DNA of 4,074 bases, taken from IMG/VR virus record IMGVR_UViG_2671181136_000008. One strand, given 5' to 3'. A program made the translations under genes and the position numbers. The DNA comes from a virus (lineage: Duplodnaviria; Heunggongvirae; Uroviricota; Caudoviricetes). The notes beneath the pieces were generated by a model. That model had not been told where the DNA came from. It saw only the letters and a program-made list of their open reading frames with translations, and made no database searches. This document shows positions 104 through 4,074 of this stretch, one piece after another; position 1 is the first letter of the stretch; every line of letters begins with the position of its first letter.

Positions 104-328
104 TTAAGTAAACCTGTCTGAACAGGTGCTCTGGTCGTGTTTGTCTTTGTTGGGTACAAATTGAGAATATTTTTCATTAATTAATCTTCTTCTGCAGGCT
201 TCAATAACCCACGCTGAAAAATTACCTGAACCTTTCAGGTCAAGAGCGATGTTAATTTGTTCAATTATCTGGTTTGGAAATCGGATGTTGCGGGTTGTTG
301 TTCTGCGGGTTCTGTTCTTTGATGACAT
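104..328 (-). CDS. Small prophage protein, YlcI/YnfO-like (DUF3950-type), function unknown
   Basis: 74-aa ORF with ATG at 328..326. The N-terminal motif MSSKNRTRRTTTRNIRFPNQIIEQINIALDLKGSGNFSAWVIEACRRRL matches my recollection of the small YlcI/YnfO proteins that sit next to Nu1 homologs in E. coli lambdoid prophages (DLP12, Qin). Recalled, not searched. A hairpin terminator lies downstream. Confidence 0.6.
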   Translation of the reverse strand: MSSKNRTRRTTTRNIRFPNQIIEQINIALDLKGSGNFSAWVIEACRRRLINEKYSQFVPNKDKHDQSTCSDRFT

Positions 329-3140: not shown

Positions 3141-3330
3141 ACTGCAGGCGCTGCGTCAGGCGCGCCTTGATTTATTAACCGGTAAACGGGTGGTGTCTGT
3201 CCAGAAAGATGGTCGCAGAATTGAATATACGGCAGCTTCTCTGGATGAGCTTAACCGGGCGATCAATGATGCGGAGTCGGTACTGGGGACAACCCGCCGT
3301 CGCCGTCGTCCGCTGGGAGTGAGGTTATGA
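3124..3330 (+). CDS. W: Head-tail joining / head completion protein (lambda gpW-like)
   Basis: 68 aa, the same length as lambda gpW, with clear similarity (LTGKRVVSVQKDGRRIEYTAAS here, versus [22 protein letters not shown] in lambda) and an Arg-rich C-terminus. GGAGGA Shine-Dalgarno at 3114..3119. Overlaps the end of A by 17 nt. The stop TGA overlaps the next gene's ATG (ATGA at 3327..3330). Confidence 0.9.
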   Translation: MVTVAELQALRQARLDLLTGKRVVSVQKDGRRIEYTAASLDELNRAINDAESVLGTTRRRRRPLGVRL

Positions 3331-3959
3331 AACGAACGCCTGTCCTGATTGATGTGAACGGCGTTCCGCTTCGGGAGAGCCTCAGCTACAACGGTGGCGG
3401 TGCAGGATTTGGCGGGCAAATGGCAGAGTGGTTGCCACCGGCGCAGAGTGCCGATGCGGCCCTGCTGCCCGCGTTGCGTCTGGGGAATGCCCGTGCAGAT
3501 GATCTGGTGCGCAATAACGGAATAGCGGCCAATGCGGTGGCCCTGCATAAGGATCATATTGTCGGGCATATGTTTCTGATCAGCTACCGTCCGAACTGGC
3601 GCTGGCTGGGGATGCGGGAGACCGCGGCAAAAAGTTTTGTCGATGAGGTGGAGGCGGCCTGGTCAGAATACGCAGAAGGGATGTCTGGCGAGATCGACGT
3701 GGAAGGAAAACGCACGTTCACGGAATTTATCCGTGAAGGTGTGGGCGTTCATGCGTTTAACGGCGAAATCTTTGTGCAGCCGGTCTGGGATACGGAAACC
3801 ACGCAGTTATTCCGTACGCGTTTTAAAGCCGTGAGTCCGAAACGGGTGGACACGCCAGGACACGGTATGGGGAACCGTTTTCTGCGGGCCGGGGTGGAGG
3901 TCGATCGATATGGCCGTGCCGTTGCGTACCATATCTGTGAGGATGATTTTCCTCGGTAA
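3327..3959 (+). CDS. B: Portal protein (lambda gpB-like), N-terminal ~210 aa only; truncated relative to full-length ~530-aa portals
   Basis: Strong similarity to the lambda gpB N-terminus (GGGAGFGGQ, LLPALRLGNARADDLVRNNGIAANAVALHKDHIVGH, KRTFTEFIREGVGVHAFNGEIFVQPVWDT, LFRTRFKAVSPKR). The frame ends at TAA 3957..3959 where lambda continues (..EDGYPGWMPQKW..). No portal-like translation continues in any frame over 3960..4074. Confidence 0.8.
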   Translation: MKRTPVLIDVNGVPLRESLSYNGGGAGFGGQMAEWLPPAQSADAALLPALRLGNARADDLVRNNGIAANAVALHKDHIVGHMFLISYRPNWRWLGMRETAAKSFVDEVEAAWSEYAEGMSGEIDVEGKRTFTEFIREGVGVHAFNGEIFVQPVWDTETTQLFRTRFKAVSPKRVDTPGHGMGNRFLRAGVEVDRYGRAVAYHICEDDFPR

Positions 3960-4074
3960 CCGGCTCATTTAAACCGTCTGGTCTGTTTCCTCCGGCTCTA
4001 CAAAAATAATGTCCATCATTTTTAATGGACACTATCGTATGAAACACCGGACCTGGATCACTGAAGCTTTACGT

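Follow-up and report, generated by a model that had tools for sequence, protein, structure and literature searches.

A conserved inverted repeat at the tnpA start of an IS66-family insertion sequence interrupting a prophage portal gene, and its candidate role as an RNA hairpin

IS66 elements and the control of transposase expression in insertion sequences

Elements of the IS66 family are among the commonest insertion sequences (IS) in E. coli, Shigella and plasmid genomes. In other families, the InsA proteins of IS2 and IS1 are HTH repressors that act at their own left-end promoters. IS66-family elements produce an 8-bp target-site duplication, and their terminal inverted repeats measure about 20–30 bp and start with 5′-GTAA. 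Within this family, ISCro1 has been given as 2824 bp long (PMC8764528), against the 2699 bp of the copies considered here.

Structures overlying the transposase initiation region have been described for several elements. In IS200, an inverted repeat located at the left end, in the 5′UTR of tnpA, sequesters the Shine–Dalgarno (SD) sequence, and an antisense RNA, art200, covers the same region, both the RNA and the effect on translation having been shown experimentally (PMC4513863). In IS10, RNA-OUT is an outward stem-loop RNA that covers the transposase initiation region and ends at about nt 47 (PMC5006887). For ISPpu9 of Pseudomonas putida, the transposase is described as being controlled by two sRNAs together with a 5′UTR structure (PMC8450116). 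The literature searched yielded nothing specific on the regulation or expression control of IS66, IS679 or ISCro1; as far as this literature shows, the IS66 hairpin considered below is undescribed, and its kind is known from other IS families.

An IS66-family left end within a prophage portal gene

The window, i.e., the whole stretch of 4,074 nucleotides that was analysed (viral record IMGVR_UViG_2671181136_000008), carries packaging genes of the lambda/phage-21 type, namely Nu1-like, terminase A, W-like and portal genes, the last of which is interrupted by the left end of an insertion sequence. The features found at this junction are the following:

3327..3955, plus strand: 5′ part of the portal gene, about 210 codons, lambda/phage-21 type, cut by the insertion (ORF list; megablast)
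3956..4074, plus strand: left end of an IS66-family element, its first 119 bp, IS679/ISCro1 group (about 99–100% identical at many sites)
3956..3981, plus strand: terminal inverted repeat IRL, GTAACCGGCTCATTTAAACCGTCTGG (flanks diverge just before GTAA)
4039..4074, plus strand: first 12 codons of tnpA, encoding the IS66-like accessory protein TnpA, 215 aa from this ATG

The truncation of the portal gene, already recognized in the initial annotation, is real, since megablast identity to 'phage portal protein' stops exactly at 3955, and the stop codon that closes the truncated frame (TAA, 3957–3959) comes from the IS end. The accompanying proposal that something had been inserted at this point was likewise borne out, the inserted sequence being an IS left end that begins at 3956. 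When the window was compared with two unrelated sites, one in a DUF932 gene and the other in a terminase gene, the common sequence started at GTAA, at position 3956. The segment 3950–4074 matched 5339 places, no more than 18 of them in any one genome, in 1743 of the 5426 complete E. coli genomes, on chromosomes as well as plasmids, and these matches were always annotated as 'IS66-like element accessory protein TnpA'. Elements with the genes tnpA-tnpB-tnpC have this left end at many different sites. The junction between portal and IS was itself absent from the 5426 complete E. coli genomes and from all the collected loci (designated L here), and also from the phage, viral, metagenome and species-representative genome collections.

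Two of the collected loci, L001 and L002, are identical to the window over 3956–4074 and carry tnpA, tnpB and tnpC, the three-gene content that characterizes IS66 being found in both of them through PF01527, PF05717 and PF03050. Both loci also match zf-IS66, LZ_Tnp_IS66 and DDE_Tnp_IS66_C, in addition to the NCBIfam models NF038385, NF033819 and NF033517, with every one of these profile matches above its cutoff. TnpB corresponds to TnpB_IS66 (PF05717) and shares 99% identity with a UniRef entry called 'IS679 transposase orfB', and TnpC, which matches DDE_Tnp_IS66, zf-IS66 and LZ_Tnp_IS66, bears the PGAP name 'IS66-like element ISCro1 family transposase'. The complete copy in L001 occupies positions 3506–6204 of that locus (2699 bp). 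Its right end, taken in reverse complement, reads GTAAGCGACTCG and gives the terminal repeat IRR GTAAGCGACTCGTCAGAACCGTATTG, so that IRL and IRR both begin with GTAA, as the terminal repeats of IS66 do. On either side of this copy TTCTCCTG is found, displaced by 1 nt on the right; the window holds the left end only.

It is almost certain that positions 3956–4074 are the left end of an IS66-family element of the IS679/ISCro1 group and that ATG 4039 is the start of its tnpA. In this lambda/phage-21-like prophage, the element is inserted into the portal gene and has truncated it, and because a gene for head assembly was inactivated by the IS, the prophage is probably defective. The insertion explains the truncation of the portal gene, and the ORF that follows is a gene for transposition and not for a phage accessory function. 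It had been suggested that a cargo or moron gene lay at the junction, an idea that had to be abandoned: the insert is an IS66-family insertion sequence and the ORF its accessory gene tnpA. That candidate is ruled out by the occurrence of the IS end, from 3956 onwards, at at least 89 different sites.

The tnpA gene and its start codon

In the window, the tnpA frame reads MKHRTWITEALR and runs off the end. The claim that ATG 4039 opens a real gene was confirmed, since the frame runs for 215 codons in identical copies elsewhere, and the suspected link with HTH proteins reappears in the encoded TnpA, which has the Pfam domains HTH_Tnp_1 and HTH_23. This protein matches the NCBIfam model NF038385 with 295.8 bits. 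In the RefSeq/PGAP annotation, tnpA starts at ATG 4009, which is situated in the 5′ arm of the inverted repeat and gives a 225-aa form of the protein. The NF038385 model starts at residue 13 of this 225-aa form, two residues past Met 4039, and most TnpA homologues have 204–215 aa and start with MKHRTW or MEYRTW. The frame opened at 4009 is broken in L014 by an added T in the T-run (GTG TCC ATC ATT TTT TAA) and is frameshifted in L048 and L049 by a 1-nt insertion. Taken together, these sequence comparisons suggest that the RefSeq start (ATG 4009) has been placed 10 codons too far upstream.

A coding role for the repeat, in which it would encode an N-terminal extension (MSIIFNGHYR) of TnpA, was also considered and was rejected because this frame is broken in L014 and L048 and because the homologues and the model start at 4039. 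Since relatives do not keep the frame open from 4009 to 4039, the repeat is conserved as nucleic acid and not as protein.

The inverted repeat ahead of tnpA

A perfect inverted repeat had been noted just upstream of the new ORF, and direct reading of the sequence confirmed it, with TGTCCAT at 4010–4016 and ATGGACA at 4025–4031. As for the spacer, described as 8 bp of A/T, the length stood and the composition did not, as CATTTTTA has one C. Around the repeat, the letters of the window are acaaaaataaTGTCCATcatttttaATGGACActatcgtATGaaacaccgg, and a repeat search found longer arms of 11 nt with one A.C mismatch (91% complementary). The region can be divided as follows:

4000..4010, plus strand: conserved A-rich tract, with a –10-like hexamer, AATAAT here and conserved as AATAAT or AATAGT, at 4005–4010
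4006..4016, plus strand: 5′ arm, ATAATGTCCAT, with ATG 4009 within it
4017..4024, plus strand: loop, CATTTTTA, whose T-run is polymorphic in length (8, 9 or 10 nt among close relatives)
4025..4035, plus strand: 3′ arm, ATGGACACTAT, with ATG 4025 and GGA 4027–4029 within it
4025..4042, plus strand: mini-ORF of five codons, MDTIV-stop, whose TGA overlaps the tnpA ATG as ATGA

GGA 4027–4029 is the sole Shine–Dalgarno-like triplet and lies 9 nt ahead of ATG 4039. The A-rich tract is AAAATAAT or AAAATAGT across the clade and, when read on the minus strand, positions 4000–4010 become a U-rich tail that follows the hairpin. An intrinsic terminator on the plus strand was ruled out, as the stem has no U-tract after it. 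In Rfam there was no meaningful match, the best being RAGATH-33 with 17 bits versus a gathering score of 120, and when the IHF consensus WATCAANNNNTTR was looked for by eye, ATCA alone was present.

A 7-bp inverted repeat is not in itself unusual, and the whole window contains 17 inverted repeats that are closely spaced and have arms of 7 nt or more. The motif TGTCCAT-N8-ATGGACA is expected 0.04 times per shuffled window. Over about 2 Mb of collected loci, 203 of about 206 motif sites were found directly ahead of a tnpA start. No further copies were found in the element, right end included, at up to 3 mismatches, and the one additional half-site in the element, ATGGACA, is the start of tnpC. 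The regulon for which the initial annotation proposed to search the genome did not materialize, there being one site per element, nearly always before tnpA.

Conservation within the ISCro1 clade

Elements of Pantoea, Photorhabdus, Xenorhabdus, Scandinavium and Erwinia, with TnpA 52–65% identical, share a near-invariant block, AAAATA(A/G)TGTCCATCATTT(T/C/A)TAATGGACA(C/T)TATCG. Because it is kept in relatives whose TnpA has diverged to this extent, the repeat is taken to be a real feature, on the grounds of its conservation in the compared sequences and not of window statistics. The mean pairwise identity of the parts of the left end, calculated over 13 lineages of the clade, was as follows:

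A-tract and repeat block: 0.90, the highest of the left end
Terminal repeat IRL: 0.84
tnpA, first 50 codons, all positions: 0.73
Spacer from IRL to the repeat block: 0.61
tnpA, first 50 codons, third positions: 0.51

No significant covariation was detected in the ISCro1 clade, in which the stem is essentially invariant. The sole variable pair, the fourth from the outside, occurs as A-U (4), G-C (4), G.U (1) and A.C (7), and these counts match the expectation for two independent sites.

The fact that loop and arms are nearly invariant in the clade, without covariation, agrees with the proposal that the block is kept mainly for packed primary-sequence signals, its symmetry being secondary. The signals proposed are a promoter –10, an ancestral start (RTG-GAC-AC), a mini-ORF acting as a leader coupled to tnpA and, possibly, a subterminal site that transposition requires. 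The mini-ORF MDTIV-stop that begins at ATG 4025 is kept in L014 and L010, its overlap with ATG 4039 (ATGA) would suit such coupling, and it is in frame with tnpA in L048–L050, and short TnpA frames open with GTG-GAC-ACC or TTG-GAC-ACT (VDT.., LDT..) in L253, L355 and L364. However, the stop of the mini-ORF is lost in L004-type copies, and primary-sequence signals leave unexplained that the 5′ arm follows the 3′ arm from one arm sequence to another and that unrelated hairpins occupy the same place in distant IS66 elements, two observations that come from outside the clade. An explanation of the block mainly by such signals is given very little probability.

Other IS66 lineages and compensatory change

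In further IS66 lineages, the same place is occupied by an inverted repeat whose arms differ in sequence. The more diverse members were obtained from phage records and from a pattern scan for IRL, the protein searches having been saturated by close relatives. Such differing arms were found in L167, L171, L252, L253, L372, L364, L355, L359 and L047, and the repeats include:

L167: GCGCCCATCTAT / ATAGATGGACAC
L171 (ISEc23): CTTAGACGCCCATCTG-ATA-TAGACGGACATCTAAG
L252 (ISEc8): GGTGTCCAC-N10-GTGGGAACC
L253 (Pseudomonas phage): CACAATGGTGCCCAC-CATTTTTTA-GTGGACACCATTGTG
L372: GATAGAGTCC-N16-GGACTCTATC
L364: AAAGTAGTTCCCA-N11-TGGGAACTACTTT
L047: AATGTCC-N15-GGACATT
L359: GTGTCCAC-N9-GTGGACAC, with a third arm, GTGGGCAC

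The 9-nt arms of 14 lineages were aligned by anchoring them on the invariant CC/GG core, with the loops reduced to a constant tetraloop. In this alignment, changes on both sides were observed in 7 of the 9 pairs. Paired cells made up 85.7%, versus 73% after shuffling (0 of 500 shuffles reached the observed value) and about 33% when the partners were slid by 1–3 columns, figures to be read in the light of a register that was picked with structure in mind, of lineages that are related and of an alignment that leans towards structure because it is anchored on the CC/GG core. Across the family, it is pairing rather than sequence that is kept, as judged from these aligned arms, and the changes on the two sides of the stem are compensatory.

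In four distant elements (L254, L255, L258 and L259), whose TnpB is about 40–51% identical, unrelated hairpins were found. The 3′ arm includes the start codon or the SD in L258 and L259; in L254 and L255, the hairpin stops a few nt short of the SD. No hairpin is present at this place in a Leptospira element, and L146 carries a natural deletion of the right arm. When the region from –60 to +12 was folded and compared with dinucleotide shuffles, 12 of 15 elements exceeded chance significantly on one strand or both. GGA is located 6–9 nt ahead of the start codon in the other lineages with a GGAC arm that were examined, with the exception of ISEc8, in which the distance is about 15 nt.

A protein operator or a hairpin

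The repeat is located where a regulatory element would be, as had been pointed out before. Of the initial view that it marks the regulated 5′ end of a gene and has the spacing of a dimeric HTH operator, the first part held in that this is the 5′ end of a gene, and the fixed operator did not, because the spacing varies: the loops measure 8, 9 or 10 nt in near-identical copies (compared in L014, L142, L143, L137 and L166), which is at odds with a fixed N8 distance.

An operator may also be conceived more broadly, the palindrome being a DNA site bound by dimeric TnpA, itself an HTH protein, or by some other protein, with autorepression of the tnpA promoter as the outcome, and this we regard as distinctly unlikely. 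The HTH_Tnp_1 and HTH_23 domains of TnpA are necessary, and not sufficient, for binding of this kind, and the protein is weakly similar to the 'IS2 repressor TnpA' model, NF006928 (35 bits, below the cutoff of 229). The primary sequence of both arms and of the loop is highly conserved in the clade, –10-like hexamers are present in the loop (TTTAAT here; TATAAT in L010, L050 and L156) and just 5′ of the core (AATAAT, 4005–4010), and symmetric half-sites would likewise give 'compensatory' changes. A complete TTGACA-15-TATAAT was found in L010 and L156 only. However, the half-sites do not keep a fixed distance, since, besides the loops of 8–10 nt in near-identical copies, the TGTCC..GGACA cores lie 12, 13, 14 or 15 nt apart across lineages. 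Contiguous complementarity extends over 13–16 bp in L364, L253 and L171, far beyond an HTH half-site, and the arms are kept although the N-terminal domain of TnpA differs (L047) or is absent (L169, L171, L253 and L372). Moreover, the promoter scan of the left end predicts none, and each element has one site, the right end being without any. Given the variable spacing and the long stems, base pairing fits better than protein half-sites, and the repeat is therefore probably a hairpin rather than an operator.

Folding of the plus-strand RNA over the tnpA start

On the plus strand, the 3′ arm carries AUG 4025 and the Shine–Dalgarno-like GGA, the 5′ arm would act as the complementary 'anti-SD', and AUG 4039 lies 3 nt outside the stem. 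In an mRNA that contains both arms, the hairpin would form and hide these signals, so that little TnpA and little downstream protein would be made. Transcripts that read in from the surrounding prophage would certainly include both arms. In contrast, the element's own weak promoter, if its –10 is AATAAT at 4005–4010, would start transcription inside or after the 5′ arm, and the block would be escaped.

Partition-function folding is in line with such a difference. With the 5′ arm present, in transcripts starting at 3860, 3956, 3990 or 4005, the predicted unpaired probability of GGA and AUG 4025 was at most 0.02, whereas both were about 50–60% unpaired when the transcript started at or after 4017. 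AUG 4039 was predicted to be about 56–70% unpaired with or without the hairpin, which counts against sequestration. For the plus-strand hairpin of the window, the folding energy was –8.6 kcal/mol (z = –2.4), and relatives whose arms are perfect gave values of –13 to –16 kcal/mol. When the left end was scanned for promoters in the window, no sigma-70-like promoter above the threshold was found, and the A-tract gave weak promoter-like matches in relatives only. The promoter position, like the role of the hairpin as plus-strand RNA and its effect on translation, is one that we infer; for a native start inside the hairpin, this is because no promoter passes the scan.

The explanation tentatively preferred, to which we give slightly less than an even chance, is that a plus-strand RNA hairpin sequesters the tnpA initiation region, most likely limiting the output of the transposition proteins, as far as modelled folding and comparison can indicate.

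Some properties of the region weigh on the other side of sequestration. GGA is a weak Shine–Dalgarno sequence, the loop is conserved in sequence as well, something not needed by a hairpin with a purely structural role, and the invariant stem of the ISCro1 clade lacks covariation. With respect to a plus-strand role in particular, the better folding of the minus strand in several lineages is a further point against.

An antisense role of the minus strand

The main rival to a plus-strand hairpin assigns the function to the minus strand, on which the hairpin would be the stem-loop of an antisense RNA that covers the tnpA initiation region, and in the clade its terminator too, or, alternatively, a plain terminator for leftward transcription out of the element. 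We consider this unlikely, albeit less so than the operator. The minus-strand fold of the repeat, a stem of 14 pairs closed by an AAAA loop, has an energy of –16 kcal/mol (z = –5.1), whereas the plus-strand values are –8.6 kcal/mol and –2.4. The bias towards the minus strand is seen in L167, L171, L253 and L252 as well, strong minus-strand stem-loops with z from –3.6 to –5.3 being found in seven lineages. The minus strand folds better because the A.C mismatches of the plus strand are G.U there. Among 20 non-Watson–Crick cells, 11 were A.C when read on the plus strand, and G.U on its complement, versus 2 of the opposite type, a count that does not represent independent events because the bias is partly shared by descent; in ISEc8, L169, L051 and L359, the wobble is the opposite one.

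After the minus-strand hairpin, the ISCro1 clade has UUAUUUUUGU, derived from the A-tract at 4000–4009, in a terminator-like arrangement. Hairpin and U-tract end at about nt 45–50 of the element, which may be compared with the end of IS10 RNA-OUT at nt 47 (PMC5006887), and in IS200 an SD-sequestering hairpin and an antisense RNA share one region (PMC4513863). On the other hand, conservation of the U-tract does not extend to L167, L171, L253, L372 and L364, the site was not called in the terminator scan, and Rfam gave no family match. No conserved sigma-70-like antisense promoter came out of a relaxed and crude scan that covered, in 17 loci, the tnpA gene up to nt 260.

A more inclusive proposal, for which the probability appears as low as for the operator, is that the IS66 left end is a post-transcriptional control module, in which an RNA-OUT-like antisense RNA, with the hairpin as its stem and terminator, would pair with the tnpA initiation region and bring about copy-number-dependent inhibition. 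In a variant of this module, a three-arm switch, as in L359, would toggle between a sequestered and an open state.

Comparison with known systems

Returning to the plus-strand hairpin preferred above, its place over the tnpA start and its conservation across the family make it a candidate for the control of IS66 expression. The element itself is well known, i.e., an ordinary mobile element with an undescribed candidate regulatory hairpin. It has the same tnpA-tnpB-tnpC order, repeats starting with GTAA and size of about 2.7 kb as IS679 and ISCro1 of E. coli and Citrobacter rodentium, from which no structural difference was found, and the window copy is a further copy at a new site.

Like TnpA, the InsA proteins of IS2 and IS1 are small, contain an HTH and are the products of the first ORF of their element, and TnpA shares the HTH_Tnp_1 fold family. 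However, its match to the IS2 repressor model, at 35 bits, is far below the cutoff of 229, and the spacing of the repeat is variable. ISPpu9 belongs to an unrelated family, and its likeness is one of concept, namely an mRNA 5′-UTR structure that limits the transposase.

The resemblance to IS10 RNA-OUT lies in the minus-strand hairpin and U-tract, which end at about nt 45–50 here; IS10 differs in having a defined pOUT, whereas the scan of the present elements revealed no conserved promoter of this orientation. IS200 differs in its HUH transposase and its near-perfect SD, whereas here GGA is the only such signal and the pairing is predicted from sequence. With IS200, the present element shares a left-end inverted repeat over the transposase initiation region whose complementary strand folds too. 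The arrangement proposed here for the IS66 left end is also that of the 'fold-back' mechanism by which IS10 and IS50 are protected from read-through transcripts.

Start codon of tnpA and its possible ancestry

In the RefSeq/PGAP annotation, tnpA begins at the ATG at 4009-4011, within the 5' arm of the hairpin (L001:3559 in the locus with a complete copy of the insertion sequence), which yields a product of 225 aa. Three lines of evidence all point to ATG 4039 as the true start, with a product of 215 aa: the lengths of homologues, the NCBIfam model, and indels that break the reading frame in relatives. Thousands of database entries for tnpA are therefore probably overlong by 10 codons. The RTG-GAC-AC of the 3' arm (compare window 4025-4032) also forms the first codons of the short TnpA in L253:815-830 (a Pseudomonas phage), L355, L364 and L252:803 (ISEc8), and the N-termini opened in this way read VDTIVDTPP.., LDTEVKPS.. 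and VGTKV... Since RTG-GAC-AC begins short TnpA frames in these other lineages, ATGGACAC in the window may be a relic of an ancestral tnpA start, kept as the long-TnpA clade acquired its additional N-terminal HTH domain.

The same arm opens a very short reading frame:

4025-4042, plus strand: mini-ORF of five codons (ATG GAC ACT ATC GTA TGA; MDTIV-stop), beginning within the 3' arm

In the window, its TGA shares bases with the tnpA ATG at 4039 as ATGA, and such a stop/start overlap is the classic layout of translational coupling. Among relatives, the mini-ORF is also present in L014 (as GTGA) and L010, is joined in frame with tnpA through a 1-nt insertion in L048-L050, and has no stop at the corresponding position in L004-type copies.

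Interrupted portal gene and packaging region

The TAA stop of the truncated portal ORF comes from the terminal GTAA of the insertion sequence (3956-3959), and the remainder of the portal gene should lie ~2.7 kb downstream, beyond the window. With the portal gene thus split, the prophage is probably defective in head assembly. Further features were found near the packaging genes:

104-328, minus strand: 74-aa ORF (MSSKNRTRRTTTRNIRFPNQIIEQINIALDLKGSGNFSAWVIEACRRRL...) upstream of the packaging genes; its product resembles a small DNA-binding protein of the ribbon-helix-helix type
476-506: AT-rich near-palindrome CATGTAGATGATAAT/ATTATCATTTTCGTG, just upstream of the Nu1-like gene
594-621: AT-rich near-palindrome TTTCTCTTCAAGTTAAC/GTTAACTATATGAAAAA, just upstream of the Nu1-like gene

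Both near-palindromes occupy the expected place of cos or a terminase-binding region.

Variation and possible alternative pairing at the hairpin

The hairpin region is a rearrangement site in several copies. An IS copy is integrated exactly 3' of TGTCC in the 5' arm of a second copy (L120:~43-63) or within the IRL of a second copy (L143:~509); foreign sequence ending in ...GGGGCGCAGTT substitutes for the left end as far as the loop (L127:~67, L177:~821, L205:~821); and the entire 3' arm is missing in one copy (L146:~586).

The heptamer of the 3' arm, ATGGACA, recurs as the tnpC start (L001:4603-4609), with which the 5' arm TGTCCAT could pair ~1 kb downstream. This recurrence is probably due to chance, since three heptamer matches were found in 7 kb versus about 1 expected. 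In another IS66 lineage, the left end on an IMG/VR contig (L359:13596-13720) carries three successive arms, GTGGGCAC, GTGTCCAC and GTGGACAC, of which the middle one, GTGTCCAC, is able to form a stem with either of its neighbours, an arrangement that looks like an alternative-hairpin switch.
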